Assembly (NCBI GenBank): GCA_041659045.1
Contig: JBAZZB010000004.1
Location: 28,129-92,128, forward strand
Source of the DNA: Patescibacteria group bacterium
Lineage (GTDB): Bacteria; Patescibacteriota; Patescibacteriia; SG8-24; DYFX01
Length of the DNA stretch: 64,000 bases
Reading direction: 5' to 3'
Shown: positions 3,380-60,072 of the stretch, piece after piece
Numbering within the stretch: position 1 is the stretch's first letter
How the letters are laid out: each line of letters opens with the position of its first letter
Position numbers and translations under genes: made by a program
Notes under the pieces: model-generated
Database searches by the model: none
What the model was told of the DNA's origin: nothing
The model's input: the letters and a program-made list of their open reading frames with translations, nothing else

Positions 3380-3455
3380 GGGCCCGTAGCTCAACGGTTA
3401 GAGCACCGAGCTTATATCTCGGCGGTCGATGGTTCAAATCCATCCGGGCCTACCA
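3380..3455 (+). tRNA. tRNA-Ile (anticodon TAT)
   Basis: Manual cloverleaf: acceptor GGGCCCG/CGGGCCT, D-arm GCTC...GAGC, anticodon stem CCGAG/CTCGG with loop CTTATAT, T-arm GATGG-TTCAAAT-CCATC, encoded CCA. Confidence 0.8.
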
Positions 3456-12071: not shown

Positions 12072-14159
12072 TTGCATATGATGTACGTTTGCCCGATGCA
12101 TCCGGAAGTACAGCGCGACGCTCCGGGACGCTGCCCCGAATGCGGCATGGAACTCGTGCCAATGAAAGAAAAGAAGGAGCACGGAGCTCACGCCGCTTCG
12201 AACAAACACGAGGGTCACTCGACAATGCAGTTCGCTCGCAAGTTTTGGATCTGTCTTGTGCTGACGGCGCCAGTCGTTCTGTATTCCGAAATTGTTCCGA
12301 CGCTTTCCGGTTGGCGTCCGCCGGCGTTTCCGGGATCGATGTATATTCCAGCACTTCTCGCCTCGATCGTTTTCTTTTGGGGCGGAGGCGTGTTTTTGCT
12401 CGGTGCCTTCCGGGAGCTGCGCGGCCGTAAGCCCGGCATGATGACGCTCATCGCTTTGGCAGTCGTCGCGGCCTATACATTTAGCGTCTGGTCGACGTTC
12501 ACGGGTGGAATGGAGACTCTGTACTGGGAGCTGACGACGCTGATCACGGTCATGCTGCTCGGTCACTGGCTCGAGATGCGCGCCGTGAGTAGTACGAGCG
12601 GTGCTTTAAAAGAGCTGGCAAAACTTCTACCCGATGAGGTCGAGGTTTTAAGAAACGGCACGCCGACCAAGATCCCGCTTTCTGAATTGCGCGAGAATGA
12701 TTTTTTTATTGTGCGTCCAGGCGGCAAAATCGCCGCTGATGGCGTCATCGAAGACGGCGAGTCCGACGTGAACGAATCAATGGTCACGGGCGAGTCGCGT
12801 CCGGCGAAAAAAACGAAGGGAAACCCTGTCATCGCCGGTACGGTGAACGGAGACGGAGCGCTCACGATCCGCGTGTCCCAGCTTGGTGACAAGACGTTTC
12901 TTGCCGGCGTCATGCGCTTGGTTGCGGATGCTCAAGCTTCAAAATCCAAACTACAAATTTTGTCCGACCGCGCGGCGATGGTTCTGACCTATGTCGCTGT
13001 TGCTGTCGGCCTCACGACGCTCATCGCTTGGTGGATTGCCTCTGGCCCGGCACTTGCCGTCGAGCGCATGGTTTCGGTTCTGGTTATCGCCTGCCCGCAC
13101 GCGCTCGGTCTGGCCGTGCCGCTCGTCGCTTCGATCTCAACCATGATGGCGGCAAAAAACGGCTTCTTGGTGAAGCAGCGACTCGCTCTCGAGGCCGCAC
13201 GCAACGTCGACTTGGTGCTCTTTGATAAAACAGGAACCCTCACAAAAGGGGAGTATGGCGTCGATCGCGTCTGGGGACTCGAGATTTCCGAAGATGAAAC
13301 CTTGGCGCTCGCGGCGGCCGTCGACGCGTCATCCGAACATGTTGTTGCGCGAGCGATTGTCGCACGCGCCAAAGAACGCGGCCTCACGATTCCTGTGGCG
13401 GAAGCATTCCAGCGCGTGCCGGGGAAAGGTGTTGCAGCGCGCGTGGCCGGACGCGAGATCGCTGTCGGCGGCGAGACGGCCATTACGACTCAATCAAGAA
13501 CATCAGTAGCTTGGAATGACATCAAAGCGGAGAACGCCAAGGGTAAGACGATTGTCTATGTGCTCGAAGGCGAGAAAATTCTCGGAGCTTTCGCCTTAGC
13601 CGACGTGATTCGTCCGGAATCACGGGAAGCGATTGCTTCGTTGAAAGCGATGGGTGTGAACGTCGGCATGGTCACCGGCGATTCCGAAGATGTCGCGGCC
13701 TGGGTAGCAGCCGAACTCGGTATCGACGAGGTCTTCGCGCGCGTCCTGCCGGGTGACAAAGCCGGTAAGGTACAGATGTTGCAGGAGAAGGGGCACGTTG
13801 TCGCAATGGTTGGCGATGGTATCAACGACGCCCCCGCGCTTACGCAGGCCGATCTTGGTATTGCTATTGGCGCCGGCACAAACGTTGCTGTCGAATCCGC
13901 AGGCATCATCCTGGTCAAAAATGATCCACGCGACATTCCAAAAATCATCCGTCTTTCGCGCCTGACCTATTCCAAGATGATGCAAAATCTTTTTTGGGCG
14001 ACGGGGTACAACATTGTCGCGATGCCGCTCGCGGCCGGGGTCCTGGCTTCTCGCGGGATTTTGCTGCAACCGGCCTTGGCCGCCGTTTTCATGTCGCTGA
14101 GCACGGTCATCGTGGCGGTGAACGCCCTACTCTTGCGCAGAAAGAAGCTTTCGGCATGA
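12072..14159 (+). CDS. copB: CopB-like P1B-type ATPase (CPH motif) with N-terminal CPMHP/CxxC heavy-metal-binding domain
   Basis: 695 aa. N-terminus YVCPMHPEV...GRCPECGMELVP, TM motif IACPHALGLAVP (CPH, P1B-3 type), [17 protein letters not shown]. Confidence 0.85.
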   Translation: MHMMYVCPMHPEVQRDAPGRCPECGMELVPMKEKKEHGAHAASNKHEGHSTMQFARKFWICLVLTAPVVLYSEIVPTLSGWRPPAFPGSMYIPALLASIVFFWGGGVFLLGAFRELRGRKPGMMTLIALAVVAAYTFSVWSTFTGGMETLYWELTTLITVMLLGHWLEMRAVSSTSGALKELAKLLPDEVEVLRNGTPTKIPLSELRENDFFIVRPGGKIAADGVIEDGESDVNESMVTGESRPAKKTKGNPVIAGTVNGDGALTIRVSQLGDKTFLAGVMRLVADAQASKSKLQILSDRAAMVLTYVAVAVGLTTLIAWWIASGPALAVERMVSVLVIACPHALGLAVPLVASISTMMAAKNGFLVKQRLALEAARNVDLVLFDKTGTLTKGEYGVDRVWGLEISEDETLALAAAVDASSEHVVARAIVARAKERGLTIPVAEAFQRVPGKGVAARVAGREIAVGGETAITTQSRTSVAWNDIKAENAKGKTIVYVLEGEKILGAFALADVIRPESREAIASLKAMGVNVGMVTGDSEDVAAWVAAELGIDEVFARVLPGDKAGKVQMLQEKGHVVAMVGDGINDAPALTQADLGIAIGAGTNVAVESAGIILVKNDPRDIPKIIRLSRLTYSKMMQNLFWATGYNIVAMPLAAGVLASRGILLQPALAAVFMSLSTVIVAVNALLLRRKKLSA

Positions 14160-14858: not shown

Positions 14859-15620
14859 ATGGATTCCAACGAAAAGTTTTCGATGACGCTCTCGGTTAAG
14901 CAGATCTTCCTCGCAGGTGTCGCCGCCGGCGTGCTCGGCGTGACCGCACTCGGTTTCATTCTCATGGTTTCCAAGGGCATCGACACGAGCTCTTGGTTCT
15001 CCGGTTCTGCGCGCGCTCCGCTCGCGGCCGCTCCGTCCGGCGCCGCTCCGACCGGTGACGACAACGGCCAGCAGGTTGGCGAAGTCGCTCCGATCAACGA
15101 CGAAGACCACATGCGCGGCGACAAGAACGCCGAGATCACGCTTCTCGAGTACTCGGACTTCGAGTGCCCCTTCTGCTCTCGCTTCCACCCGACGCTCGTT
15201 CAGGCGTTGAACGAATACAAGGGTAAGGTTCGCTGGGTCTACCGCCACTTCCCGTTGAACTCGATTCACCCGAACGCGCAGAAAGCAGCCGAAGCCTCCG
15301 AATGCGCCAGCGAACAGGGTAAGTTCTGGGAGATGGCCGACAAGATGTTCGAGAAGCAGGCTGCGGGCCTCTCTCTCACGCAGCTTTCCGCGCTTGCCAA
15401 GGAAGCGGGCGTGCGTGACATCAAGAAATTCGATTCATGCGTTTCGAGCGGCAAGTACGCCCAGCTCGTCGCAGCCGACCTCGCCAGTGGCGAAGCGGCC
15501 GGCGTGACCGGTACGCCGGGAACGATCGTGATCGGCAAAGACGGTTCGAAGCAGCTCATCCCGGGCGCGCTTCCGTACGACTCCGTCAAGCAGATCATCG
15601 ACTCGATGCTCGCGTCCTAA
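14859..15620 (+). CDS. DsbA-family thiol:disulfide oxidoreductase, membrane-anchored
   Basis: TM anchor, then the thioredoxin CxxC motif FECPFCSRFHP, and the DsbA-like pattern with cis-Pro region TGTPG. Confidence 0.75.
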   Translation: MDSNEKFSMTLSVKQIFLAGVAAGVLGVTALGFILMVSKGIDTSSWFSGSARAPLAAAPSGAAPTGDDNGQQVGEVAPINDEDHMRGDKNAEITLLEYSDFECPFCSRFHPTLVQALNEYKGKVRWVYRHFPLNSIHPNAQKAAEASECASEQGKFWEMADKMFEKQAAGLSLTQLSALAKEAGVRDIKKFDSCVSSGKYAQLVAADLASGEAAGVTGTPGTIVIGKDGSKQLIPGALPYDSVKQIIDSMLAS

Positions 15621-16351: not shown

Positions 16352-16511
16352 ACAGGCAGGTTGTGGGTTAACGATACGAGAGGTCGCACCATAGAGGAAA
16401 AACGTAAAGACGTCAAGGCCAGCGGGTCACGATCGACATATCAAGCGTAGGCCGCGACCGTCAGGGCAGCATCCTTGAAGCATGGGCACTCTTCCATTAG
16501 GATACCTTTAT

Positions 16512-19160
16512 ATGCAGAAGCCGGAATTGGAAAAAGCCTACGACGCCTCCAAAGTGGAGGATGCGATCTATCGCCGCTGGGAAGCGAGCGGCTTTTTCAA
16601 TCCCGACAAACTGCCGGGTGGCAAGAAGAAGAAACCGTTCACGATCGTTCTGCCACCGCCGAACGCCACGGGCGTTCTCCATGTTGGTCACGCCACGATG
16701 CTCGCGCTGGAAGATTTGATGATTCGTTACAAGCGCATGCGCGGCTTCGCTTCGCTTTGGATTCCCGGCACCGATCACGCTTCGATCGCCACCCAGAACA
16801 AAGTCGAAAAGCTGATTCAAGAGAGCGAAAAGAAATCGCGCCACGATCTCGGCCGCGCCGAATTTTTGAAGCGCGTCGAGACGTTCGTCAAAGGTTCTCA
16901 AAACACGATTCGCAATCAAATCCGCAAAATGGGCTCGTCGATCGATTGGTCGCGCGAAGCCTACACGCTCGACAAGCCCCGCTCCGAAGCGGTGATCGAA
17001 ATGTTCAACCGCATGTACGAAGATGGTCTCGTGTACCGCGGCGAGCGCGTCGTGAACTGGTGCGTACGTTGCACCTCAACACTCGCGGACGACGAAGTTG
17101 AATACAAGGCGCAAAAAGCCAAGCTCTACTTCCTGAAGTACGGCCCATTTAGTGTCGCGACCACGCGCCCAGAAACGAAACTCGGCGACACCGCCGTGGC
17201 CGCCAACCCTTCCGACGAACGCTACAAGAGCTGGATCGGAAAAACGTTTGAACTCAACTGGGGTGAGGGTACCAAGCCGCTCACGATCCGCGTTATTGGC
17301 GATCACGAAGTCGACATGAAGTTTGGTTCAGGCCTCATCGGCGTCACGCCCGCCCACTCCGCGGTCGACTTCCGTATGGCCGAGAAGAACAAGCTCCCGA
17401 TCATCAAAGTGATCGGTGAAGATGGTCGCATGCTTGCGTCGGCAGGAAAGTACAAGGACATGACCGTTCTCGAAGCGCGTCATGCCTTCGTGAAAGACCT
17501 CGAAGCTCAAGGCTTGATCGAGAAGATCGAAGAGATCGATAACAATCTTTCGGCGTGCTACCGCTGCTCGACCGCCATCGAACCGCTCACCTCGCTCCAA
17601 TGGTTCGTCGACGTGAACAAAAAGATCAAAGGCCGCGGCAAGTCGCTCAAGGAGCTGTCGCTCGACGCCGTCAAAAAGAGCGGGGTCAAGATCATTCCCG
17701 ATCGTTTTGAGAAGGTCTACTACCATTGGATGGAGAACCTTCGCGATTGGTGCGTCTCTCGCCAGATTTGGTTCGGCCACCGCATTCCGGCCTGGCACTG
17801 CGAGAACGGCCACGTAAGCGTCGCGCGCAAAATGCCGACGAAGTGCACTGCGAAAGGTTGTGCTTCGAAAAAACTCCGCCAGGACGAAGACACGTTCGAT
17901 ACGTGGTTCTCTTCCGGCACCTGGACGTTCTCGACGCTCGGTTGGCCCAAGAAGACGCCGGACCTGAAACGCTTCCATCCGACAGATGTGTTGGAGACGG
18001 GTTACGACATCCTGTTCTTCTGGGTCGCCCGCATGATTTTGATGACGGAGTATGCCATGAAGCAGGTGCCGTTCAAAACCGTCTACCTGCATGGCCTCGT
18101 CCGCGACGAGCAGGGAAGGAAGATGTCGAAGTCGCTTGGCAACGTGCTCGACCCGCTCGACGTCATTCCGAAATACGGCACCGACGCCGTCCGTTTGTCG
18201 CTGGTCCTCGGCACGGCGCCTGGCGCCGATGCCAAGGTTTGGGAAGACAAGATCGCCGGCTATCGCAACTTCACCAACAAGCTCTGGAACATCTCGCGCT
18301 TCGTACTGACGAGCGTTTCAAAAGTTTCGCGCGTCTCGAAGAAGCCAACAGCCAAGACGCTCTCGGATAAATGGATTCTCGCACGTCTTGATTCCGTGGC
18401 TGCGCAGGCGACGTCCTCGATTGAGAAATTTGATTTCTCACCGGCGGGCGAATTGCTGCGCGACTTCACCTGGACGGAATTCGCTGACTGGTATTTGGAG
18501 ATCGCCAAGATCCAGATGCAAGACGCGAAACTTAAGGCGTCCACGGAAAAGATCTTGCTCTACGCGCTTGAGACTATTCTGAAACTTTGGCATCCCTACA
18601 TGCCGTTCGTTACCGAAGCAATCTGGGACATTCTTTCGGGCAACGCCAAAGGCAAGAAATTCCTCATGATCGAAGCGTGGCCGAAAGCGAAAGCCGTTGC
18701 AGCTCCGAAAGAATTCGCCTTGCTTCAAGAAATCATCGGCGCGATCCGCAACGTGCGCAGCGAATACAAAGTTGAACCCGCCAAAAAAGTTGACGCGACG
18801 ATCGTGGCCGGAGCGAAAGCAAAACTTTTGAAGGAAAACGCCGCCGTGATCGCTACACTTGCCCGCATCGAAACGCTGACGATTCTCCCGAAAGGGGAGA
18901 AACCAAAAGACGCGGCTTCAACAATGGCTGGCGGCGTCGAAATCCACCTTCCGCTTGCCGGCATGGTGGATATGGCCAAGGAGAAAGCTCGACTCGAAAA
19001 GGAGAAGGAGAATCTCACGGGCTTCGTGAAGAACCTGGAAGCCAAACTCTCGAACCCCGGTTACACCGACAACGCGCCGAAAGAGGTGGTCGAGAAAACA
19101 CGTCAGATGCTCGCCGAGAAGAAAGAAGAATTGAAGAAAATTGAAACCGCCCTGGGTTGA
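16512..19160 (+). CDS. valS: valine--tRNA ligase
   Basis: HIGH-type PNATGVLHVGHA, KMSKS, and a C-terminal coiled-coil tail typical of ValRS. The start is taken at ATG 16512 (MQKPELEKAYD). Confidence 0.9.
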   Translation: MQKPELEKAYDASKVEDAIYRRWEASGFFNPDKLPGGKKKKPFTIVLPPPNATGVLHVGHATMLALEDLMIRYKRMRGFASLWIPGTDHASIATQNKVEKLIQESEKKSRHDLGRAEFLKRVETFVKGSQNTIRNQIRKMGSSIDWSREAYTLDKPRSEAVIEMFNRMYEDGLVYRGERVVNWCVRCTSTLADDEVEYKAQKAKLYFLKYGPFSVATTRPETKLGDTAVAANPSDERYKSWIGKTFELNWGEGTKPLTIRVIGDHEVDMKFGSGLIGVTPAHSAVDFRMAEKNKLPIIKVIGEDGRMLASAGKYKDMTVLEARHAFVKDLEAQGLIEKIEEIDNNLSACYRCSTAIEPLTSLQWFVDVNKKIKGRGKSLKELSLDAVKKSGVKIIPDRFEKVYYHWMENLRDWCVSRQIWFGHRIPAWHCENGHVSVARKMPTKCTAKGCASKKLRQDEDTFDTWFSSGTWTFSTLGWPKKTPDLKRFHPTDVLETGYDILFFWVARMILMTEYAMKQVPFKTVYLHGLVRDEQGRKMSKSLGNVLDPLDVIPKYGTDAVRLSLVLGTAPGADAKVWEDKIAGYRNFTNKLWNISRFVLTSVSKVSRVSKKPTAKTLSDKWILARLDSVAAQATSSIEKFDFSPAGELLRDFTWTEFADWYLEIAKIQMQDAKLKASTEKILLYALETILKLWHPYMPFVTEAIWDILSGNAKGKKFLMIEAWPKAKAVAAPKEFALLQEIIGAIRNVRSEYKVEPAKKVDATIVAGAKAKLLKENAAVIATLARIETLTILPKGEKPKDAASTMAGGVEIHLPLAGMVDMAKEKARLEKEKENLTGFVKNLEAKLSNPGYTDNAPKEVVEKTRQMLAEKKEELKKIETALG

Positions 19161-19195
19161 CACCAGGCGGTTTTTTTGTGTAGCGTTCCATTCAG
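19146..19195 (+). repeat. repeated hairpin element, copy 1 (ccgccctggGTTGACAccaggcgg + T7 + gtgTAGCGTtcc): terminator with embedded -35-like box
   Basis: GC stem CCGCC/GGCGG with TTGACA in the loop, a T-run, then TAGCGT 17-18 nt after TTGACA. This family recurs after each of the next genes. Confidence 0.6.
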
Positions 19196-19204
19196 GAGGT
19201 TCCA

Positions 19205-19765
19205 ATGCTGCTCTTTCTCATCGTGCTTGGGCTCGTTGCCATAGTCGTGCTCGTGGTCACGCTGCTCCGCCTCGGAGCTCGGAAGCGTACGTTCGAGCAC
19301 GCCGAGGAAACAAAGAAGAAGTTGAACGAACTGCTTCGTGCCGTCATGCAGTGGCAGGGCAGTGAATACGACTTCGTGCCGTACGACAGCGACCGTAAGT
19401 TCGACGATCGGAATCGTGGGTATCGTTCGCTCACACTGCGTCCCGACGACAAGGTGGCCTGGGACATCACGACCGATCCGCAGATGAAGTGCCGCGTGAA
19501 GCTTCGGTGGAAGGACGCGCAGGGTGAAGACAGAGAGTTCTGCTACCCGAGTGCCATGGGCTTTTCCGAGGAGCAGTGGCTGAAGACGATGGTCGACATC
19601 GTGCTCTGGTACGTACACGAGATGCCGCCGCCGCGCACGCATGAAGAGTGGATGGCCAAGCGCCGCCAGGAGACCGCGGCAACAATCGCTCGCGCCGAGG
19701 CTCGCAGCGTCGCAGAAGGCGACAGCTTCTCCTCGCTCGAAGATCCTTTGGATGACATGGACTAA
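19205..19765 (+). CDS. small bitopic hypothetical protein A (N-terminal TM + charged soluble domain)
   Basis: 186 aa, RBS aggagg, hydrophobic N-terminus LLFLIVLGLVAIVVLVVTLL. Confidence 0.6.
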   Translation: MLLFLIVLGLVAIVVLVVTLLRLGARKRTFEHAEETKKKLNELLRAVMQWQGSEYDFVPYDSDRKFDDRNRGYRSLTLRPDDKVAWDITTDPQMKCRVKLRWKDAQGEDREFCYPSAMGFSEEQWLKTMVDIVLWYVHEMPPPRTHEEWMAKRRQETAATIARAEARSVAEGDSFSSLEDPLDDMD

Positions 19766-19806
19766 CCGCCGGGATTGACCCTAGGCGGTTTTTTTGTTAT
19801 CGTCCC
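19766..19806 (+). repeat. repeated hairpin element, copy 2 (ccgccgggaTTGACCctaggcgg + T7 + gtTATCGTcc)
   Basis: Same architecture and near-identical flanks as copy 1. Confidence 0.6.
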
Positions 19807-19830
19807 CGCACGTTCATTGTGGAGGAGCTC

Positions 19831-20433
19831 ATGTCAAAATCGCGATTCGTGTGGCCGTCCTGGTTTTCTTCAGCGCTTTCCTGCGCGACGCTGCTCTGGT
19901 TGACCTACTTCTTCTGGCCCGCTTGGTACATCCCGGCAGCGGGCGCCGGACTCGCAATCGTCGTGGGCCTTGTCATGGATTGGCGCCGAGGTCAGAGGGC
20001 GAAGCAAGAAGGTTGGAAGCTGCTCGAGCCGATGTTCGATGAGTTGATCCGCGCCGTTGAATTCCGCACGCGGCCGCTCGATGCGATCGTTCTCTACAAC
20101 GCGCGTCGGCGGAACGGCAATCTTCTCACGCACCAGCTCCAAGTGCAGATCGAATCACGCATCTACGCGCTCCGGACGATGATGGAGGTTGAAGGGCGAC
20201 ACGCCGGGCACATCAATGTCCGTTTCACCGTGCAAGGCCCCGGCGATTTCAAAGCGCAGGCGTACTATCCAGACGTCTATCGCGCCGCACGGCCCTTGCC
20301 GCGCCTCGCCGAACAGCTGGAGAAACTTCAATCGCTCATTGGAAATGCCAGCGCGTACGAGAAACGTCGCAAACGCCTCAGCGCGCTCGGCATCGACATC
20401 CCCCTTCGCACCGACACGCCGCTCGATATTTGA
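19831..20433 (+). CDS. small bitopic hypothetical protein B
   Basis: Roughly 200 aa, RBS ggaggag with 4-nt spacer, Trp-rich TM region. Confidence 0.6.
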   Translation: MSKSRFVWPSWFSSALSCATLLWLTYFFWPAWYIPAAGAGLAIVVGLVMDWRRGQRAKQEGWKLLEPMFDELIRAVEFRTRPLDAIVLYNARRRNGNLLTHQLQVQIESRIYALRTMMEVEGRHAGHINVRFTVQGPGDFKAQAYYPDVYRAARPLPRLAEQLEKLQSLIGNASAYEKRRKRLSALGIDIPLRTDTPLDI

Positions 20434-20460
20434 CCTCGGGCGGTTTTTTCTTTAGGTTGA
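20418..20460 (+). repeat. repeated hairpin element, copy 3 (ccgctcgatatTTGACCtcgggcgg + T6 + ctttaggtt)
   Basis: More divergent family member. Confidence 0.45.
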
Positions 20461-20487
20461 ACCCACGTATCGAACAAAGGAGCCATC

Positions 20488-21003
20488 ATGCCGCCCGTGG
20501 TCCAATTGCTCATCGGCTTAGCCGTCCTTGCCGCCCTTTTCTTCCTCGGTCGTCGTCTCAGGCTGCATCTCGCCGAACGAGAATTCCGCGCGCCGCTTGG
20601 CACGAATCTCGATTGGCTGATCGGGCAGTTGAGATGTTACGACACGGTGCCGCTCCAGGATCTGTACATCACGCACGCGGGTGCGCATCCCGGCGTCGAC
20701 GATCCGAACGACGTTTCTACGCACTACGAAGTGTATCCTCGTGGAAACCACCGCTTCTCCTTTTCGCGCATCGGTCATGGTGAGAAGGTTTGGTATCGCG
20801 TCGATCGCTGGTGCAAGAATCCACTGGACGCCTCGAACTTTCCGCCGTGGGGTGTTGGCGCATGCCGCAGCTCCTGGTTCGTGGAACGAATGAAAACCCT
20901 CTGTGACCTGCTCGATCGCTATCCACGTGAGAGGACGCTCTCCTCGCGCGCTCAATGCGTCATGGACGGCAAACCTGATCCGTTTCCTCACACTCCGGCT
21001 TGA
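20488..21003 (+). CDS. small bitopic hypothetical protein C
   Basis: 171 aa, RBS aaaggag, N-terminal TM. Confidence 0.6.
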   Translation: MPPVVQLLIGLAVLAALFFLGRRLRLHLAEREFRAPLGTNLDWLIGQLRCYDTVPLQDLYITHAGAHPGVDDPNDVSTHYEVYPRGNHRFSFSRIGHGEKVWYRVDRWCKNPLDASNFPPWGVGACRSSWFVERMKTLCDLLDRYPRERTLSSRAQCVMDGKPDPFPHTPA

Positions 21004-21031
21004 CCTAAGCCGGTTTTTTTGTTAGCGTCCG
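20994..21031 (+). repeat. repeated hairpin element, copy 4 (ccggcTTGACCtaagccgg + T7 + gtTAGCGTcc)
   Basis: Perfect 7-bp stem with TTGACC spanning the loop. The tail is identical to copy 1. Confidence 0.6.
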
Positions 21032-21057
21032 AGCGACCACGTACGAAAGGATCGCGC

Positions 21058-21633
21058 ATGCGTTTCATCACGGCACTGCTCATTTTCCTCGGTGTCATCG
21101 GTCTGCCGATCATGCTTCTCTGGCAGCACCAGCGGCATGTGCACCGTGCGCATGAAGCGGCGGTCAAAGCGCTCCTGTCGCGCTATATCGATGGAATCAT
21201 CCGTCTGACGGTCGTCGGTCCGCCGGCCTTTCACGAGATTACGATGATCGAGAATACACTCGGCGGTAAGATCATACGTCGCCTGTATCGCATCTTCCTG
21301 AGGCCAGCTCTCGGTTTCACGATCGAGGCATGCTGGGAGAAGAATCGTTGGGAGTACTCGGCGCGTTTTTTCGACCCGCTCGAAGAACGCTATCAGGAAT
21401 TTCCGATCGTTCGGAACTACAGGTTTCACACGCCCTGGTTCGAAGCCAAGGCCGAGACGCTGATGCAAGTTCTTGAGGCCTACATGCGTCATCCGCTCGT
21501 GAAGTCGCGCGAAGGCGGGGCCTTTAGCAGCGACTTCGATCGCGTCGCAGCTCTTTTCAACGTCACAAAGTGGAATACCATCGACTACGAGGCTTTCTTC
21601 CAGTCCGCGCGAGACCTCCGACCGGCTGCTTGA
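21058..21633 (+). CDS. small bitopic hypothetical protein D
   Basis: 191 aa from ATG 21058, RBS aaagga, N-terminal TM. Confidence 0.6.
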   Translation: MRFITALLIFLGVIGLPIMLLWQHQRHVHRAHEAAVKALLSRYIDGIIRLTVVGPPAFHEITMIENTLGGKIIRRLYRIFLRPALGFTIEACWEKNRWEYSARFFDPLEERYQEFPIVRNYRFHTPWFEAKAETLMQVLEAYMRHPLVKSREGGAFSSDFDRVAALFNVTKWNTIDYEAFFQSARDLRPAA

Positions 21634-21660
21634 CGCAAGCCGGTTTTTTTGTTCAGATAA
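21621..21660 (+). repeat. repeated hairpin element, copy 5 (ccggctgcTTGACGcaagccgg + T7 + gttcagat)
   Basis: Same stem sequence as copy 4. Confidence 0.55.
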
Positions 21661-21673
21661 AAAAGGAAGGAGC

Positions 21674-22207
21674 GTGCGCCCCATGACGTTTTTCCACTGG
21701 TTCAAATGGTTGGTCATCGTCGTTTTCTTCGTTGCGTTCTTCATCGTGAGCGTGATTCTGTTGAGCCGTCGCCTCGAGAAAAAACGATTGGCGAAGGTCT
21801 CGACACCACCGGGGCAGGATCGGTTGCTCTACGACCGCCTCGCCGCAGAGATGTTGGCTTACGCGTCCGAGAGTGGCGTGGTCTATCACCAAGAGATCGA
21901 GTCTCGTTTTGGCGAGCACGCTTTCGTACGTACGACCTCCGATCGGTTTGGCAAGAAGCGCTACGTTGAGCGCCAACGCTGGTACAACGGACGAATTCAA
22001 TACACGATCTGTCGATACGACAACAGCTCGAGCACGCCGTCGGACTCCGCGATCTGCGAGCAAGCGGTGTCTTCGTCCGCTAGGGACGTGTACTACGACA
22101 GCATTCGCGATATTCGCGAACACGGCTCAAAGATCTCGTTTCGGGACGGTGATGGGCTGAACTGCCAGTTGCGCGTTCCGCCGAAGCCTGTCGAATCTCG
22201 CGTCTAA
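21674..22207 (+). CDS. small bitopic hypothetical protein E
   Basis: 177 aa, RBS aaggaagga, GTG 21674 or ATG 21683, N-terminal TM. Confidence 0.6.
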   Translation: MRPMTFFHWFKWLVIVVFFVAFFIVSVILLSRRLEKKRLAKVSTPPGQDRLLYDRLAAEMLAYASESGVVYHQEIESRFGEHAFVRTTSDRFGKKRYVERQRWYNGRIQYTICRYDNSSSTPSDSAICEQAVSSSARDVYYDSIRDIREHGSKISFRDGDGLNCQLRVPPKPVESRV

Positions 22208-22245
22208 CTCCTCCATGCTTCGCGCTGGAGGTTTTTTATTGACGC
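22208..22245 (+). terminator. terminator hairpin (cctccatgcttcgcgctggagg + T6) followed by TTGACG
   Basis: Different stem sequence but the same layout: hairpin, T-run, TTGAC(G). Confidence 0.5.
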
Positions 22246-22293
22246 GTCGCCCCGGCTCGTGAGAGGTTGGATGCAACCTGACGGGAGGTTCGT

Positions 22294-22677
22294 ATGCGTG
22301 TCCTGACCTGGTTGCTCGGTAGCCTCGTCGCTGCCGCGACGGCGGCCTATGTCGCGAAACAGCACACAAAGAAAAGCACCGTCGATCAGTTCTTGGGTGC
22401 TATCGAGGCCAAACGTGTCGCGGTGCATGCCGAGTGGGATAGCATTCCCGCTCGCAACATTCGCGAGCAGTGGTTCGAAGGCATTGCTGATGGCGAGCCG
22501 TTCCGTTTCAGTGCCCGCACCGACAAGTCCAGCACCGAATGGGGCTTCGCCCTCGACTGGAAGGGGGAGACGACGTTCGAACGTTGGAACATCTTAAAGC
22601 AAGGTCGTACGCGCACCCTCGCTGCCATTCATCTCGCCCTCAAGCGCCTGCCCGTCCAAGATCGGCAGGAGCACTGA
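22294..22677 (+). CDS. small bitopic hypothetical protein F
   Basis: 127 aa, RBS gggagg, N-terminal TM. Confidence 0.6.
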   Translation: MRVLTWLLGSLVAAATAAYVAKQHTKKSTVDQFLGAIEAKRVAVHAEWDSIPARNIREQWFEGIADGEPFRFSARTDKSSTEWGFALDWKGETTFERWNILKQGRTRTLAAIHLALKRLPVQDRQEH

Positions 22678-22679
22678 CA

Positions 22680-22720
22680 ACCCATGATGGGTTGCTTTTT
22701 TTGTCTTGACATGCGCGCTT
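22680..22720 (+). terminator. terminator hairpin (caacccatgatgggttg + T7) followed by TTGACA
   Basis: Perfect palindrome around ATGAT, a T-run, then ttgaca. Confidence 0.55.
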
Positions 22721-22779
22721 TTTTCTGCAAATGTGCTTGCGCGCCTTTCCACCGCTACCCTCCACAAGGAGCCGCTCTG

Positions 22780-23199
22780 ATGCCACAGATCTTCCTCGGC
22801 ATTTTCCTGATCCTGCTTATCGTCGTGCCCGTGTTCGTTTACGACCGCCGTCGCGCTGTCGAGGATGGGCGACGTCATCTGCTCGACATGCTCCGTCGCA
22901 CACCCGATGACAGTCTGCACCTTGTTCGCTTCGGGAAGTTCAGGGCCAACGACCGCATCAGTATGGTGCTCCTCGGCTTCTTCAAGAAGTCGTTCCATCA
23001 CTACCATCTGCGTATCGAGACGACTGGCGTGAAGAAGCGTTATCGTCTCCAACACTCGCTTGATTGGCCTGGTCCGGGATGGCTGACGAAAGAGCATCAA
23101 GGACAGATTGGCGACGAGGTCTGGACGGCCACGCTCGCGCTCATCTCCGCCGCGACCGATCTCCACAACCTCGTACGTGACGAACAGGCCGCTGCCTGA
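22780..23199 (+). CDS. small bitopic hypothetical protein G
   Basis: 139 aa from ATG 22780, RBS aaggag, N-terminal TM. Confidence 0.55.
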   Translation: MPQIFLGIFLILLIVVPVFVYDRRRAVEDGRRHLLDMLRRTPDDSLHLVRFGKFRANDRISMVLLGFFKKSFHHYHLRIETTGVKKRYRLQHSLDWPGPGWLTKEHQGQIGDEVWTATLALISAATDLHNLVRDEQAAA

Positions 23200-23211
23200 A
23201 TCGTCTCACGG

Positions 23212-23238
23212 ACAGCCCTTCGGGGTTGTTTTTTTATG
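23212..23238 (+). terminator. terminator hairpin (cagcccttcggggttg + T7)
   Basis: GC stem, ttcg loop, T-run, just before tyrS. Confidence 0.6.
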
Positions 23239-23262
23239 CCTTAAACGCTAAAGTCTCTCCAT

Positions 23263-24447
23263 ATGAAAGCCCCGTCTGACGCCGCAATTGAACGACTCTT
23301 GGGACATCAAGTCGCCGACGTAATCGTTCGTGAGAGCCTTGAGAAGAAGCTCCGCTCCGGCAAGAAACTCCGCATCAAGTTCGGAGCCGACCCGTCGCGC
23401 CCGGATCTCCACCTCGGACATGCTGTCGTGCTCCGCAAACTGCGCGAGTTCCAAGACCTCGGTCACACGGTCATCTTTTTGATCGGTGACTTTACGGCAC
23501 TGATCGGCGACCCGACGGGCAAATCCAAAACGCGCCCAATGCTCTCCTCGAAGGAGATCAAGGAAAACGCGAAAACCTACATGAAGCAGGTGGGCAAGGT
23601 TTTGAATGTGAAGAAAGGCGAGCTTCGCTACAACTCGGAATGGCTGGGCAAGATGAAGGCCGCCGATTTTGTCTCGCTCTGCGCCCAGTTCACCCTCGCC
23701 CGCATCACTGAGCGCGACGACTTCTCAAAGCGCTTGGCTGCCAAAACAGATGTGTACATGCACGAGCTGCTCTACCCCATGCTCCAAGCCTACGATTCGA
23801 TTGCCTTGAATGCCGATGTCGAACTCGGCGCGACCGATCAAACCTTCAACCTCCTCGCTGGGCGTGCGCTCATGAGTAAGAAGGAGCTCGTTCCTCAAGA
23901 TATTCTGACGACGCCGATTTTGGTCGGCACCGACGGCAAGGAAAAGATGTCGAAGTCGCTCGGCAACTACATCGGTCTGACGGACTCCGCCGAAGACATG
24001 TTCGGAAAAACGATGTCCGTGCCGGACTCCGCGCTGCCGAACTGGCTCGAACTCGCCGTGGATTACTCGAAAGAAGAGATCGCCGCCGAGAACGCCGCGC
24101 TCAAGAAGGGGGAGAATCCGCGCGACGTGAAGATGCGTCTCGCGAAGAGGCTCGTCTCCCTCTATCACGATAAGAAAGCGGCCGACAAAGCCGAAGAAGG
24201 TTTCAAGGCACGTTTCCAAAAGGGGGAGATGCCGACGGAGATGAAAAGCTGGAAGCTGCCGAAGCCGATGAAACTGTACGAAATCGTCGCTTCCGCGTTC
24301 GCTATGTCCAACTCGCAGGCACGCCGCGATATCGAAAGCGGTGGCGTGAAGATTGATGGCGCGGCCGTAAAAAATCCGATGCAGGAAATCGCCAAAGGCG
24401 GGGTTGTCCTTCAGAAGGGCAAGCTGCATTTCGTGAAGATTGTCTGA
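23263..24447 (+). CDS. tyrS: tyrosine--tRNA ligase (class I, with C-terminal S4-like domain)
   Basis: HIGH motif DLHLGH, KMSKS, 394 aa, C-terminal S4-like ARRDIESGGVKIDG. Confidence 0.8.
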   Translation: MKAPSDAAIERLLGHQVADVIVRESLEKKLRSGKKLRIKFGADPSRPDLHLGHAVVLRKLREFQDLGHTVIFLIGDFTALIGDPTGKSKTRPMLSSKEIKENAKTYMKQVGKVLNVKKGELRYNSEWLGKMKAADFVSLCAQFTLARITERDDFSKRLAAKTDVYMHELLYPMLQAYDSIALNADVELGATDQTFNLLAGRALMSKKELVPQDILTTPILVGTDGKEKMSKSLGNYIGLTDSAEDMFGKTMSVPDSALPNWLELAVDYSKEEIAAENAALKKGENPRDVKMRLAKRLVSLYHDKKAADKAEEGFKARFQKGEMPTEMKSWKLPKPMKLYEIVASAFAMSNSQARRDIESGGVKIDGAAVKNPMQEIAKGGVVLQKGKLHFVKIV

Positions 24448-26177: not shown

Positions 26178-26210
26178 TCCCCTGAGGGCACTTTGCCCTC
26201 ATTTTTTTTA
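26178..26210 (+). terminator. Rho-independent terminator (tgagggcactttgccctca + T8)
   Basis: Perfect 7-bp stem and a long T-run. Confidence 0.7.
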
Positions 26211-26272
26211 CGGGGTACAATGGGGAAAGAAATTCACAGCCTGCTACAGGCGTTAACTATTTTCGTGGAGGT

Positions 26273-52500: not shown

Positions 52501-55401
52501 GGTGCTTCTTGCCGCGCGTATCCGCAGGAGAACGCGCCGTTCCCGTCAAAAGTTGCCGATCCGAATGGCTGGGATTACGAGGCGGCTGAACTCAATGGCG
52601 GTAACCCCGTCCTGATCAGCCCGAGTCCGAGCTTCGCTGGCGCGAATGTCTGTCAGCGCCGTTTGGTGAACGGTGTCGAAGTATCGAGTTGTGAATGCAA
52701 CTACTTGGTCGCGAACTACGGTTCCGATAAGAAATATTTCCCAGCGGGCAGTTCGGATATCCCGAGCGGGTACTGCACTGGCGGCTTGTATGCCGGATAT
52801 GAGTGCGATCCTCTTGCTTCGGGTGCACGTTCACTCAACAATCCTTCCTGCTGCAGCAAGACCGCTGACAGTTCTTCTGGATTGCTTGCGAGCGGTTGCA
52901 ATGACGGCGCGCAGTGTATTCGTGTCAAAAAAGTGGATCGCGTGGTCGGCTATGAGGGTCAGTGTCTTGAGCGCGACATGACGCGCCCGATTAATGGCAC
53001 GTCCGACCAGTACGCGTGTTTGACCTGGCGCCCAGTTGGTCTGATCGGCGGCTCTCGCGACATCTACAACCAGAATCAGTCTGCGGGTTACTTCGCTTCC
53101 GCTGACCGCCGCTTCTACTGCGTTGGTGACCAACCGGCTTGGACGACGCATCTGGACATCAATACGACAGAGGACTTCGACAGCCGTGACAACATTGATG
53201 GCACGCTTGTTGGTCCGTACGACCAGTACACCAATAAGTTCTTTGGCACCGGTAAGGTCACGAATGGTTCATCGTCTGCAACTTGGCGCGCCGATTGTCA
53301 GAAAGCCGGTCCGGGGCAGTGGTGCCAGTGGCCGGGTATTTCTCGAGGTTCGCACGCGCCGCAATTGCGAGGTGACGGAACTGCGGTGAATTGTACGAGT
53401 GATAGCGATTGCTCGACGAACTACTACTGTAACGGGGACGCGACGACGTCTGATCGCAGCTGTGTTGCAGTCGCGGCGACGTATCACATCAATACGGAGG
53501 CCGTTGGTATTCTTGGTTGCTATGAAGTGGCCGACGAAGGTTCGGTCGACATGACCTACATCGACTTCCCATACATCGGCCCTCCGCTCTATCAGCAGCA
53601 GCTGAAGAGCATCTACTTCCAGGTTACTGACGATATCTACGACTACATCGCTCCGTTGCAGCCGGGCGAAATTCAGGTTCCGGATGACGCTACTGGCTCG
53701 ACGTATGATTTGTCGAAGATCGCTACGAACCCACACCAGAACATTATTGGCGACTGCAACGACGAAACTGACGACAACATTGATAATGAGGATAACGACG
53801 GTATCGATTCGGCCCCCGTTTCAGAGGCAGAAGTGGTCAGTTCGGATGCCGCGCGCAGTAAGAGTGTTTTCCACCTGAACGACACGAACAGCTGGAAAGT
53901 CGATCCTTCTGATGGCGAAGGAACTATTCTGCTTGCAGCCGCGTTCGACTCGAACGGTCTTCTGAAAACCATTCGCGTCGCCGCAAGCGATTCGGGCGAT
54001 GAAGGATCCTTCGGTATCAAGAGTATGGGCTTCCAGTTCAAGCCCGGTTGCGAACAGATCGCGCAGGTCGATCAACCTGGCGAGTTTGGCGCGACGGCGG
54101 CTTTCACGGATGTGGTCAATAACTTCCGAACCTTTGGAGGCTTTGGAGGAGAAACTGATATGTCTGGTCAAGCGTGGCAGCATGAATACGCTTGCAAGCC
54201 GTATGGTGCGATCGGTGCGATCTCGCAACCTCCTCCGAATAAACCGTGGACGTATGTTGCGGCGCGTCTCGCGACTGATGCTGAGCAGTGCACGGTGACG
54301 GACTTCACGAGGGGTGCAAATTACTCACTCGATATCCCCGCGGATTTCCTCGACACAGACTCGTTGCGACGACTCTTCCGCAAGGTCTACGCCGTGTGGG
54401 ACTACGTAAAGCTGAACTTCACGGCGGGCGGCAACACGTACACGTCGGTACCAAACCTGGCTGGCGACGCGTACTACAACGAAACGGGCACGGTTGATCC
54501 TACGACGCTCATGAACCGCAATGGTGCGGGAGCAATCTTCGGCAAAGTCTGGTATCCGCCGATCGTGGCTGCCGTCGATACGAGTAACTGCGATTCGAAC
54601 GGACGCTGTAAGATCTCGCGTACCAACGCATTGACGGTCAATGGCAAGTCGCAAGGTCTCTTGCTCGGCGCGGACGGCTCACTCAGCGTAACGGCCAAGT
54701 TCTACGCTTGGGCCTCGCACAACTCGATGCCGATTCTCCAGCGCACGGTGCTCTGGGGCGACTACACTGCGAAAGAACCGCCTGCGAAGGGCTGGTACAA
54801 AAACCAGAAACCGTTCTGCTCGCCGGATATTTCCGACGCGAACGCGGTAGGCGAGTGTTCGACCAACGGTATGACTTGCGATACGGACGCTGATTGTCTC
54901 GGTTCCGGCACGTGTGGCAAGGGTATCGGCAATCACTTCGGCAATACCCCGGGTGCCTGTAACGCGGGTACGTTCCAGTTCGACCATACCTACACCTGCA
55001 CGCTCCGTGATCTGCAAACGATGGCAGCGTGCACGGGTCCTGGCGATGCCGCTGACAACGCGCCGTGCTATCGCGTGCTCGACGGCGCTCCGACCTGCGT
55101 CTACCGACCGAAAGTTCAGGTCGTCGACAACTGGGGTTGGTGCAACTGTACTGGTGATGGTTGCGCGTACACGCTTAGCAACAACGGCGCGTATCGCGAA
55201 GGTTGCTCGTTGACGAACCCTCCGGCAAACGCAAAACCGTGGACCGAGTATGTCGGCGAAATCCGTCTTGCGCCTCGCGCCCAGGACGCGGCTGCCTTCG
55301 TTCCTGGTGGCGGCGGTCCTGGCGGGGGAGGAGGCGGCGGCTCGTTCGATCCTAGCGTCCTTGAACAGATCTTGAGCGGTGGCGGAATGTTCAGTCTTTG
55401 A
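46534..55401 (+). CDS. giant (2955 aa) secreted Cys-rich surface protein with at least three CBM4/9-like carbohydrate-binding modules and a Gly-rich C-terminus
   Basis: Signal peptide ILVAALIAFFIVAKPAAAQ. Three recurrences of the N-G-S-F-E...W...G-K-S-Y...(F/S)-W-A pattern, at roughly 48430, 49040 and 50440. More than 100 Cys. C-terminal PGGGGPGGGGGGGSF. Confidence 0.7.
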   Translation: MPTRTPTKILVAALIAFFIVAKPAAAQFGIPQVVVDPGANAQLGIANANLAAQTAQGTVQTTDTVKQSAWQVLKTSLTNTAALALLNGANYFAQKVAYDAAVYLASGGSGQKPFFTTEGLGNYLQNTAADAAGEVLGTLTSDPASFGKYGINLCVPKTPQLALNFKIGFLNGLPGILGTGGPTPPTPKCSWDSISTNWDSFVSQDSSEVLDQVGIMFTPGESSLSAAIELNNIALQQIAEKNLESYGDYLANKGFKPVRDFISRDIKTPASTIEKQLDISMEQGWKQGDRTVAITGSAFNNAAFGILPAALQTFAGALSEQLLKKVFTQGLISVSDLMGSNGDQALSFGASPPAGGRASAELANASLLTPKILSITNYNELTDFATCPTSGNTTNHCVIDTQFYNAVSRADQGQAMTVRQAVQQGFLNRGWQLLPLSHRKNLETTCYGEAFCYSNLVKLRLARVLPIGWEMAANSPFNDVNRPVTLGEAMDRFEDCPRDPSGGVDETRLPDPLHPWCHMVDPEWVLKYPSAICRQQAPGPTLLSPQSSARAESCVDVTSCISQDASGNCVGGYGYCVREKGVWKLDADACPAQYSSCTVYNRADGATFAFLANTLDAGPCNLQNAGCRQYSLSTNSVPNGSFEDLLAGQPRDWTLSAGARLHRSGTLSSHGVNAVGVLAGNGASVRIPSLMPGKSYAISAGVVQELEGTSAVGTIRLTFFKADGTPVDTSTLSTTCESENLGRAVSLDIATTVLGYQNGSCTVTTPPGTNSALLEISSSAPAAGNRTWFDALGVFGEGFSTSPYDGIFLNSQATTCSSDDAGCTEFVRVSTGTLNLVRNSGFEEASTATNRALFWNLDPARYNHDTFVGSQGASSVTLSPTPVSQDVYGVLSDASYSFSVATRHSGTGAAPNALATIQLYDTSPTPQAVSPVTVDGCTLSGSSMQLNLAVGNEFQNTTCSFTTPSDIGYARIILTSNSPTEDVLADAVQLELSVGATAYHDGYASSAQHVNLKKAPVGLDCSGDDRSAECSKYAPSCRRDEVGCNAYNPIDGGTAITAVTTSNDACPVACAGYDTFRQEPTQFNESRFPLFLIPKSAEVCTANEAGCTEFTNIEKLAQGGESREYFTYLRLCTKPDDQSGTYYTWEGNDVRGYQLRSWSLRRSNSTSVINDSDPTGGTAPCTKLAYDAAGQPRCADDAASVLAASCTRTDISYNPDCREFYDVDGNIHYRLYSKTILSTDSCREYRITKSSETECRDHGGRWQNNECRYLAYAPESASCAATAKDCRAYSGNASRNVRVIVTNTFEVGTTEGWTAAPGGGSTSDVVNSNEAVSAGGHSLKATRANVTSNVSGQIRKGKSYLLTFWAKGTGDLSAHLSQAGDESFTFNRTTSTESPVNLTTEWRPYQIGPVEAINAPETTEQLIFERLGGGAPLFFLDNIELREITDDVYLIEESWETPLVCDQTPSGASSPQYMLGCRAYKDRSNTQSTFKSFEKLCRPEAVGCEALYDTRNSASPFAQTFRAVCTIAASCVPGSGLTCPCAVDGATVCQVTRGETSCRYDINDDVPASRVSPTGDTVRVSPDGVEYLVNDLRYRCDSDAIGCTAMGDKHMNSARDAVDTWSTVYLRNVPSDYARTLCNAPEQYCQAYTKKADASPVFFKDPEARICEFRDGAAAGSRGWFKKGTSDPCDPTYLESGDRYGIWKNSDAAYDGWAGVCSPQHDMCKEFIDPVATSSSFPNGTPYYAIFNDRLDTKTCQNRVSLNESPSGANAASACVLFWQTDNLTKIYSATATYALSDSQRGALVAPQPGGALSDSNTIIRVQRDRQCGEWLDCRSRRTVFNASTGQYQNVCTSYSLCAEFERIGNTTRCVRYVESSYSGTTLTPDIYSARTVGSKGMDYSGLAIPNRYPVDELVTVNVGASVTKPDLRLVYVGGTCNGAYGTFCGPADDQGSCLGPAGSRLCVHPIDGGRLITSEAQLNQPQIVSGYPGASCRAYPQENAPFPSKVADPNGWDYEAAELNGGNPVLISPSPSFAGANVCQRRLVNGVEVSSCECNYLVANYGSDKKYFPAGSSDIPSGYCTGGLYAGYECDPLASGARSLNNPSCCSKTADSSSGLLASGCNDGAQCIRVKKVDRVVGYEGQCLERDMTRPINGTSDQYACLTWRPVGLIGGSRDIYNQNQSAGYFASADRRFYCVGDQPAWTTHLDINTTEDFDSRDNIDGTLVGPYDQYTNKFFGTGKVTNGSSSATWRADCQKAGPGQWCQWPGISRGSHAPQLRGDGTAVNCTSDSDCSTNYYCNGDATTSDRSCVAVAATYHINTEAVGILGCYEVADEGSVDMTYIDFPYIGPPLYQQQLKSIYFQVTDDIYDYIAPLQPGEIQVPDDATGSTYDLSKIATNPHQNIIGDCNDETDDNIDNEDNDGIDSAPVSEAEVVSSDAARSKSVFHLNDTNSWKVDPSDGEGTILLAAAFDSNGLLKTIRVAASDSGDEGSFGIKSMGFQFKPGCEQIAQVDQPGEFGATAAFTDVVNNFRTFGGFGGETDMSGQAWQHEYACKPYGAIGAISQPPPNKPWTYVAARLATDAEQCTVTDFTRGANYSLDIPADFLDTDSLRRLFRKVYAVWDYVKLNFTAGGNTYTSVPNLAGDAYYNETGTVDPTTLMNRNGAGAIFGKVWYPPIVAAVDTSNCDSNGRCKISRTNALTVNGKSQGLLLGADGSLSVTAKFYAWASHNSMPILQRTVLWGDYTAKEPPAKGWYKNQKPFCSPDISDANAVGECSTNGMTCDTDADCLGSGTCGKGIGNHFGNTPGACNAGTFQFDHTYTCTLRDLQTMAACTGPGDAADNAPCYRVLDGAPTCVYRPKVQVVDNWGWCNCTGDGCAYTLSNNGAYREGCSLTNPPANAKPWTEYVGEIRLAPRAQDAAAFVPGGGGPGGGGGGGSFDPSVLEQILSGGGMFSL

Positions 55402-55405
55402 TTCT

Positions 55406-60036: not shown

Positions 60037-60072
60037 GGGGCGGTGCTAGGCAAACTGTGGTAAAATAAAGCC

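Follow-up and report, generated by a model that had tools for sequence, protein, structure and literature searches.

A 64,000-nucleotide (nt) stretch of DNA from a metagenome-assembled genome (MAG) of Patescibacteria (Minisyncoccota), referred to below as the window, carries an array of seven small genes, A to G, between the essential aminoacyl-tRNA synthetase genes valS and tyrS. This array is probably a clade-specific accessory island of membrane-anchored proteins in a Paceibacter-like genome, placed where valS and tyrS were ancestrally adjacent, and with gene junctions at which a terminator and the next promoter are nested. Each unit would consist of a promoter, a Shine-Dalgarno (SD) site, a gene and a terminator, and at least A to D would derive from tandem duplication. 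We regard the architecture of the array and the account of its evolution as very likely correct. The nearest valS relatives belong to Minisyncoccota, Paceibacter and "Patescibacteria group" MAGs.

Seven genes between valS and tyrS

The valS-tyrS interval contains seven co-directional plus-strand genes with SD-supported starts, coding for proteins of 127-200 amino acids (aa), and no other gene. These seven also appear in the NCBI annotation, as hypothetical proteins WC866_06110-06140, and lengths and boundaries agree. SD sites of the AGGAGG, GGAGG or AAGGAG type precede each of A to G. Each protein has one N-terminal hydrophobic window (Kyte-Doolittle 19-mer score of 1.78-3.38), and two to six lysines and arginines (K+R) follow within 15 residues past this transmembrane (TM) helix. 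A sequence-only reading had described seven co-directional open reading frames (ORFs) with a ribosome-binding site, an N-terminal TM helix, a basic stretch and a hairpin followed by a T-run; all of this was found again. Its size range of 127-204 aa refers to the longest ORFs, and the T-runs, given there as T7 after every gene, are T6 or T7. The GC content is uniform and native, and a foreign origin was therefore dropped. The genes and their flanks are as follows.

Positions 16482-19160, plus strand: valS, upstream flank; the loop of the first hairpin includes its stop TGA (19158-19160).
Positions 19205-19765, plus strand: gene A, 186 aa; N-terminal TM helix, predicted cytoplasmic domain and a conserved acidic C-terminal tail, SLEDPLDDMD.
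Positions 19831-20433, plus strand: gene B, 200 aa; two probable TM segments; paralog of A and C.
Positions 20488-21003, plus strand: gene C, 171 aa; conserved motif CRSPWFVERM; modelled as helix 3-49, four strands and helix 129-144.
Positions 21058-21633, plus strand: gene D, 191 aa; C paralog (hhalign 98%).
Positions 21683-22207, plus strand: gene E, 174 aa; a family of its own, with the conserved polar motif T..D.FG...Y.E.
Positions 22294-22677, plus strand: gene F, 127 aa; more strongly conserved than any other member, with a TM helix rich in small residues.
Positions 22780-23199, plus strand: gene G, 139 aa; present in this genome only, with no detectable relative.
Positions 23263-24447, plus strand: tyrS, downstream flank.

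Putative terminator-promoter elements at the gene junctions

RNAfold was run on the 34 nt preceding every run of six or more T in the window. Eight hairpins with a T6-T7 run behind them were obtained within 19171-23229; valS and all of A to G are followed by one such site each, and the folding free energies (dG) are -10.6 to -13.1. All eight are on the plus, coding strand, inside 4.1 kb, whereas comparable sites in the other 60 kb amounted to a handful (counted by eye from the RNAfold list). The sites lie -15 to +13 nt from the stop codons: the hairpins enclose the stops of valS, B, C and D, and A, E and F stop 0-2 nt ahead of theirs. In form, these GC-rich stem-loops with an adjoining T tract, found at gene 3' ends and in coding orientation, are intrinsic terminators. 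A loose generic terminator scan taken alone was not significant (10 found versus 6.5 +/- 2.7 expected), so that the weight rests on the position of a hairpin near every stop, on orientation and on conservation. Rfam recognised no family inside the array.

The sequence-only reading had noticed that the hairpins share sequence, and a repeat search bore this out by returning five 34-nt direct-repeat copies at 19154, 19772, 20427, 20997 and 21627, spaced by 570-655 nt and 62-85% identical to the reference copy. That reading missed that TTGAC plus 'GTTAGCGT' is, judged from the sequence, a -35/-10 pair: TAGCGT, TATCGT or TAGGTT stands 17-18 nt away in four of the five array copies, mostly with TGT ahead. 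The eight candidate terminator-promoter regions are listed below.

Positions 19147-19186, plus strand: composite element 1; hairpin 19147-19170, T7 19171-19177, putative -35 TTGACA 19157-19162 in the loop, 18-nt spacer, -10 TAGCGT 19181-19186 with TG before it.
Positions 19766-19803, plus strand: composite element 2; hairpin 19766-19788, T7 19789-19795, putative -35 TTGACC 19775-19780, 17-nt spacer, -10 TATCGT 19798-19803.
Positions 20419-20458, plus strand: composite element 3; hairpin 20419-20443 with the B stop TGA (20431-20433) in the loop, T6 20444-20449, putative -35 TTGACC 20430-20435, 17-nt spacer, -10 TAGGTT 20453-20458.
Positions 20995-21028, plus strand: composite element 4; hairpin 20995-21013 including the C stop, T7 21014-21020, putative -35 TTGACC 21000-21005, 17-nt spacer, TGT and -10 TAGCGT 21023-21028.
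Positions 21622-21658, plus strand: composite element 5; hairpin 21622-21643 with the D stop in the loop, T7 21644-21650, putative -35 TTGACG 21630-21635, 17-nt spacer, weak -10 TCAGAT 21653-21658.
Positions 22210-22268, plus strand: candidate E terminator and F promoter; hairpin 22210-22231, T6 22232-22237, TTGACG 22239-22244, TG 22260-22261, hexamer GAGGTT 22263-22268.
Positions 22678-22733, plus strand: candidate F terminator and G promoter; hairpin 22678-22694, T7 22696-22702, TTGACA 22706-22711, 16-nt spacer, TGC and AAATGT 22728-22733.
Positions 23213-23254, plus strand: candidate G terminator overlapping the tyrS promoter; hairpin 23213-23228, T7 23229-23235, TTGTTT 23226-23231, 17-nt spacer, TAAAGT 23249-23254.

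Sequence statistics and conservation suggest that the shared element works for two genes, as a terminator for the upstream one and, nested within this, as a promoter for the downstream one. At five of the eight junctions, the terminator would take its 5' arm and its loop from the last codons and the stop of the upstream gene. The -35 TTGAC that serves the following gene would sit in this loop, the 17-nt spacer would be made up of the 3' arm plus the T-run, and a -10 TAnnnT, in part extended, would come next. Before F and G, TTGAC stands directly past the T-run, and the TTGAC...TGAGAG/A arrangement of F is kept in relatives. At tyrS, the putative -35 TTGTTT would overlap the 3' arm and the T-run; TTGTTT-N17-TAAAGT ends 8 nt before the tyrS ATG, no SD site intervenes, and the same arrangement occurs in four relatives (L083, L008, L016 and L022; L numbers designate related valS loci), so the tyrS mRNA is probably leaderless. 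An SD site and a start codon lie 12-40 nt downstream of each -10. The earlier proposal that every unit is a transcription unit of its own agrees with the promoter-like and terminator-like signals present at each; with a promoter signal at every junction, each gene may be transcribable on its own.

In the window, TTGACN-N16-18-TANNNT occurs 16 times, compared with 2 +/- 1.3 expected from Markov shuffles, and several sites outside the array read TTGACA-N17-TGCTAnnnT. Hexamers of this kind at 17 +/- 1 nt, above chance and upstream of genes, are those of sigma70-type promoters, from which the elements identified upstream of E genes deviate. In 12 related genomes, TTGAC in a hairpin followed by a T-run was found 33 times in 41 kb of arrays and twice in 516 kb of flanks, the latter counted on both strands. 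This roughly 200-fold enrichment shows that the hairpin is not the generic terminator shape of these genomes. TAnnnT follows at exactly 17 nt (n = 23) or 18 nt (n = 2) in 25 of the 33 array elements; among the eight that lack it, those identifiable by sequence precede E-family genes. Fifteen different complementary arm pairs were seen in the elements of the relatives around a fixed TTGAC, which is unpaired or mostly unpaired in the majority.

A simpler view would take the hairpin as a terminator only, or as a duplicated palindrome of the repetitive extragenic (REP) kind, with TTGAC produced by the TGA stop and the array transcribed as one operon with attenuating hairpins. The TGA stop is indeed part of the TTGAC core in valS, B, C and D, and the E-upstream elements have no TAnnnT. 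In addition, a ribosome at a stop inside a hairpin could suppress termination: as reported in PMC4824070, an E. coli terminator a few bp past a stop codon is almost fully repressed by the ribosome. However, TTGAC is kept where the stop lies elsewhere, that is after A and, shifted just past the T-run, after E and F. TAnnnT at a fixed position is expected by chance in about 1% of cases (estimated from base composition), the TTGACN-N17-TAnnnT pattern also marks other intergenic regions of the window, and the SD sites and start codons are placed as expected behind each -10. Dispersal of the kind known for REP sequences or miniature inverted-repeat transposable elements was not seen either, with no copy elsewhere in the window and the two in the 516 kb of flanks, no complete genome having been scanned. 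We consider this view very improbable. No account of a terminator-promoter design with TTGAC in the loop was found in the literature for Patescibacteria.

Two further observations concern these elements. The terminator after argS (26183-26232; hairpin 26183-26201, T8) nests a promoter-like TTGCCC-N17-TACAAT, and overlap of terminator and promoter thus exists outside the array, but without the TTGAC loop. In most close relatives the last codons of C and D are CCG GCT GCT TGA, which also supply the terminator with its 5' arm and its loop, and the proteins consequently end in (P/S)-A-A, an -AA terminus that we take to resemble an ssrA-type LAA degron; the C protein of the window ends in T-P-A (terminator regions of C and D, 20995-21003 and 21622-21633).

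Families, gain and loss, and divergence

The sequence-only reading had called the soluble domains mutually dissimilar. This holds for BLASTP, which returned no similarity among the seven proteins, but not for family profiles: hhalign linked A-B (95.6%), A-C (86.7%), B-C (96.0%) and C-D (98.0%) over 110-140 columns, most of the soluble domain. As judged from these profiles, A, B, C and D are diverged paralogs. By eye, their shared core reads (Y/F)P - loop - PW(F/L)xxR(M/L)xxLxxLL and corresponds to the last strand and the C-terminal helix. F has a paralog family, I, in relatives (89.5%), while E, G and a further family, H, were linked to no other family by hhalign. Hidden Markov models (HMMs) of the families cross-hit within the array and detected no further member elsewhere in the window. 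An exhaustive HMMER search with the C+D profile over 1.84 billion representatives gave 20 proteins of 61-191 aa at E <= 1e-3, and a word-indexed homolog search gave 3-12 relatives per family.

Pfam, NCBIfam, PADLOC and PHROGs recognised no significant family in any of the seven proteins and returned sub-threshold, TM-driven matches only. No hit reached the curated cutoffs of Pfam, NCBIfam or PADLOC, and none was to a known immunity family; the best hits were E = 0.024 in PADLOC and 0.0015 in PHROGs (the TM region of A), with no significant match to a component of a defence system or to a phage family. The one match to a toxin-named family, that of B to Cpta_toxin (E = 0.091, 13 bits versus a cutoff of 27), covers the TM region. 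Phage relatives were detected neither in IMG/VR scans (C/D, F, E) nor by tblastn against GenBank phages (A, E, F), and when the C/D, E and F families were compared with PDB sequence profiles, no hit fell below E = 0.2.

We compared valS, A to G, tyrS and argS with 80 valS loci by tblastn. valS directly adjoins tyrS in more distant Patescibacteria (L010, L013, L021, L076), and in L012 the interval contains unrelated genes, including one for a YunG-family protein. Arrays of three to eight small TM genes were present in L002, L005-L009, L016, L022, L082, L083, L085 and L088. In L003, whose valS is 93% identical to that of the window, the interval is nearly empty: 246 bp with a single 35-aa mini-ORF (12693-12800) that encodes a TM segment and a basic stretch, has a good SD site and sits between the valS terminator-promoter and the tyrS promoter. 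This mini-ORF has no similarity to any array gene, and the idea that it is a remnant of one was dropped. The array is thus, as had been proposed, an insertion between two synthetase genes, at a place where these were ancestrally adjacent. A metagenome scan with tyrS found only distant relatives (<= 54%), without valS synteny.

Comparison of the intervals revealed loss and variation around a conserved order. A-B-C-D-E-F is kept across the clade, at valS identities of 59-96%, and nearly every array includes E and F. In family content, however, the 13 arrays are not alike: D is often missing (absent from L002, L008 and L083), position 1 holds either A or the unrelated A2, H and I are restricted to one subclade, and G is unique to the window genome. 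Families would thus have been gained, lost, truncated, internally duplicated and exchanged by recombination, and the whole array may be lost. The B gene of L082 (1758-2357) has a premature stop at codon 176, compared with 200 aa in the window, and its downstream codons are still alignable; the A protein of L085 (6673-7494) has 273 aa and an internally duplicated soluble domain. Inside the valS-tyrS island of one subclade lies the gene for a conserved secreted protein, absent from the window, which has about 380 aa, a signal peptide and two prealbumin-like domains of the SpaA_2 type (L005 12791-13936, L009 12738-13874, L016 14202-15416, L022 13420-14562, L088 1279-2421). An acidic tail, F-(S/P/T)-SL(D/E)DP(M/L/C)DDM(D/E), ends the first gene of many arrays, in the A family as well as in the otherwise unrelated A2 of L006 (window 19730-19765, L006 8216-8839, L008 12780-13352, L016 12805-13353, L082 1145-1693), and looks like a portable short linear docking motif.

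Substitution rates set the array apart from its flanks. Between the window and L082, valS is 96% identical with a ratio of nonsynonymous to synonymous rates (dN/dS) of 0.046, whereas A to F are 75-92% identical with dN/dS of 0.09-0.25; the ratio was 0.046-0.055 for valS and tyrS. Between the window and L002, identities were 94% for valS and 91% for tyrS versus 34% for C, 56% for E and 56% for F. Between L085 and L087, C to E showed dN/dS of 0.13-0.41 and C was 72% identical, while the F protein was unchanged; dS was 0.20 for tyrS, 0.10 for F and 0.43-0.62 for C to E. Overall, dN of the array families was 2-24 times that of the flanking synthetases. Ratios below 1 but above those of the synthetases, together with a mosaic dS, indicate that the genes are real and selected, that constraint is relaxed and that the locus is a recombination mosaic. 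In the complete genome L007 (CP129476; 10001-16790), valS is 68% identical to the window by tblastn (71% in a codon alignment), compared with 93% for tyrS and 90% for argS; this contrast between flanks would imply a recombination or replacement breakpoint at the array.

The main rival to the accessory island is a lineage-specific housekeeping module, in which A to F would be parts of a membrane machine of the clade (envelope, division, pilus or host attachment) and their divergence would reflect high evolutionary rates in the candidate phyla radiation (CPR) and the fact that the proteins are small and non-catalytic. The kept order, purifying selection throughout, the near-universal E and F and the native GC content all agree with it, as does the conserved TM helix of F, whose small-residue face suggests a specific membrane partner. 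Yet L003 lost the entire array in spite of its close valS, families are frequently lost or replaced, B is truncated in L082, dN is elevated and dS mosaic, and separate promoters and terminators would be unusual for stoichiometric subunits. We consider a housekeeping module unlikely.

Several features of the window lie outside this subject. The TTG start of argS (24440-24447) overlaps the end of tyrS by 8 nt, which suggests translational coupling, unlike the individually insulated array genes. A membrane-anchored DsbA/thioredoxin-like protein is encoded about 0.9 kb upstream of valS (14859-15620), with a 224-aa minus-strand ORF in between, and the synteny P-type ATPase / DsbA / 224-aa ORF / valS is kept in L085. 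ARAGORN identified a tRNA-Ile with anticodon TAT (3380-3455), which would mean that AUA is decoded by a UAU anticodon instead of a lysidine-modified CAU tRNA. A plus-strand cluster at 55379-63154 resembles type IV secretion or conjugation systems and includes a 969-aa polytopic membrane protein without Pfam hit (55379-58288), a PrgI-family protein (60073-60501) and a TraG/VirB4-type P-loop ATPase (61229-63154). A second array suspected at 58-61 kb from minus-strand T-runs was dropped, because these runs fall inside the plus-strand genes of this cluster.

Predicted topology, possible roles and known systems

The flanks of the TM helices are asymmetric in charge. Mean K+R was 0.76 in the N flank and 4.5 in the C flank, and the C flank exceeded the N flank in 39 of 42 array proteins; under the positive-inside rule, this predicts a cytoplasmic location for the soluble domains. 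In B-type proteins there are two TM segments, and both ends are positively charged. No lipobox occurs in the seven window proteins, and three of 63 array proteins have an incidental, non-conserved lipobox-like match; in none of the 63 does the hydrophobic helix begin with the prepilin peptidase motif G/(F,M)TL(I,L)E. Pilin and lipoprotein identities were dropped on these grounds. An AlphaFold2 model of C, built from 7 sequences, has a mean predicted local distance difference test (pLDDT) of 67.5 and a predicted TM-score (pTM) of 0.61, with the helix, strands and helix listed above. In the F model (13 sequences; pLDDT 80, pTM 0.70), helix 3-38 is followed by an antiparallel meander of five strands, then by helix 108-118 and one last strand. 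Both models suggest a common layout of alpha (TM and juxtamembrane), beta-meander and alpha. They match no known fold, and TM-scores of 0.4-0.5 to uncharacterised phage proteins in BFVD are not meaningful. Invariant positions of A to D and of F are nearly all hydrophobic or aromatic, which makes a catalytic role unlikely. An array protein would thus carry, behind an N-terminal TM anchor, a basic helix next to the membrane and a small alpha + beta-meander + alpha domain without enzymatic function, both inside the cell (N-out/C-in).

This prediction bears on the sequence-only interpretation of the array as immunity-protein, polymorphic-toxin or surface-variation cassettes with hypervariable domains outside the cell. 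That interpretation has in its favour tandem small genes of one architecture with very divergent soluble parts, separate expression signals, presence/absence polymorphism at a fixed hotspot, alleles that seem older than their flanks, and T-runs in promoter spacers that are formally like the phase-variable vlp promoters of Mycoplasma. Divergence is unusually fast, as it supposed. On the other hand, the charge bias and the lack of lipobox and prepilin motifs in the seven speak against ectodomains and surface variation, and no toxin gene, toxin domain or fragment, known immunity or defence family or phage relative was found in the searches above. A to F are orthologous and recur in order rather than being shuffled, with gene-wide dN/dS well below 1. 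At the level of assembled contigs, no sign of phase variation was seen: the -35/-10 spacing is 17 nt in 23 of 25 elements, and T-runs were identical in all four contig pairs that are 100% identical and come from different samples or assemblies. We regard such cassettes as highly unlikely.

Our best guess is that the array proteins are accessory and act at the membrane's inner face as tethered modules for binding, as adaptors or as sensors, without enzymatic activity. Their role may be dispensable and related to niche or conflict, for example phage exclusion, abortive infection or immunity; for a conflict-related function we would go no further than a tentative suggestion. A bolder and decidedly unlikely proposal is a self-expanding repertoire of membrane-tethered intracellular receptors, for an innate-immunity-like role or for partner recognition, peculiar to one lineage of ultra-small CPR bacteria. 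The nested hairpin would then both insulate the expression of each cassette and act as the recombination substrate by which cassettes are duplicated, deleted and swapped. Such a dual role would account for the roughly 200-fold confinement of the element to arrays, for dS being mosaic and for the clean loss of the array from L003.

Several points weigh against the accessory island with nested signals that we favour. Its stable order and content, down to 59% valS identity, would fit a lineage-specific housekeeping set equally well. Sequence comparison links neither E nor G to A-D, and the searches described above gave no defence, immunity or phage homology. The promoters and terminators of the array are predictions from sequence and conservation, the topology is a prediction from the positive-inside rule, and the idea of a common fold comes from two models of medium confidence. 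The E-upstream elements, here and where identified in relatives, have no good -10. Finally, since the stops other than that of G lie inside the hairpins or 0-2 nt before them, masking by ribosomes as reported for E. coli in PMC4824070 may make termination conditional, and read-through, hence polycistronic RNA, is possible.

CPR/Patescibacteria genomes are about 1 Mb in size and rich in unannotated small membrane proteins. About 4 kb of such a genome is here given to seven of them, with individually wired expression predicted. The evolutionary signature of the array is measurable (fast, mosaic, dispensable yet selected), and its regulatory design would be unusually economical. If its promoters and terminators are confirmed, the composite element would be a compact natural insulator part and a marker for transcription-unit annotation in uncultured CPR genomes. 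Known defence systems are reported to be scarce in CPR/Patescibacteria, and if the proteins are conflict or recognition modules, they would form a new family of such factors in this lineage.

The array recalls several known systems in part. The vlp genes of Mycoplasma hyorhinis are tandem, co-directional small genes with their own promoters, a homopolymer tract between -35 and -10, a shared N-terminal region, a divergent remainder, and gain and loss among strains. The array is like them in its tandem, co-directional layout, putative own promoters, spacer homopolymer, shared N-terminal region, divergent remainder and gain and loss. It differs from vlp and vsa genes in having no lipoprotein signal and a predicted cytoplasmic topology; compared with vlp, it has no coding repeats, its T-run would be a terminator tail, promoter spacing is constant and no length variation was seen. 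Orphan immunity islands and the orphan arrays of contact-dependent inhibition (CDI) and Rhs systems occupy a fixed chromosomal site and are made up of small genes that diverge fast and are each expressed separately; gene presence varies between strains, and recombination occurs. All of these traits are shared by the array, for which separate expression is predicted, and which differs in having no toxin gene or C-terminal toxin fragment, no known immunity family, and ordered orthologs that are in part paralogs.

Lactococcal Sie and T4 Imm and Sp are small membrane-anchored superinfection-exclusion or abortive-infection proteins. Array proteins resemble them in size (about 100-200 aa), N-terminal anchor, extreme divergence, putative own promoters and dispensability, and differ in their context, which is not that of a prophage, in having no relatives in PHROGs, PADLOC, IMG/VR or GenBank phages, and in vertical inheritance with conserved order. 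In predicted topology, the array proteins resemble bitopic proteins of the N-out/C-in (type III) kind, among them ZipA, EzrA and HIV-1 Vpu, with which they share an N-tail that is very short or missing, a single TM helix, a basic segment next to the membrane and a predicted soluble cytoplasmic domain. For the junctions, the counterpart is provided by intrinsic terminators that overlap sigma70-type promoters in compact genomes. Both have a GC stem, T6-7, TTGACN, a 17-nt spacer and TAnnnT, often with TGn, and in both one stretch of 35-40 nt would serve two adjacent genes. The array differs in that the putative -35 lies in the terminator loop, the stop codon often falls inside TTGAC and three signals are packed into about 40 nt, a design confined to one gene array and conserved across the clade.

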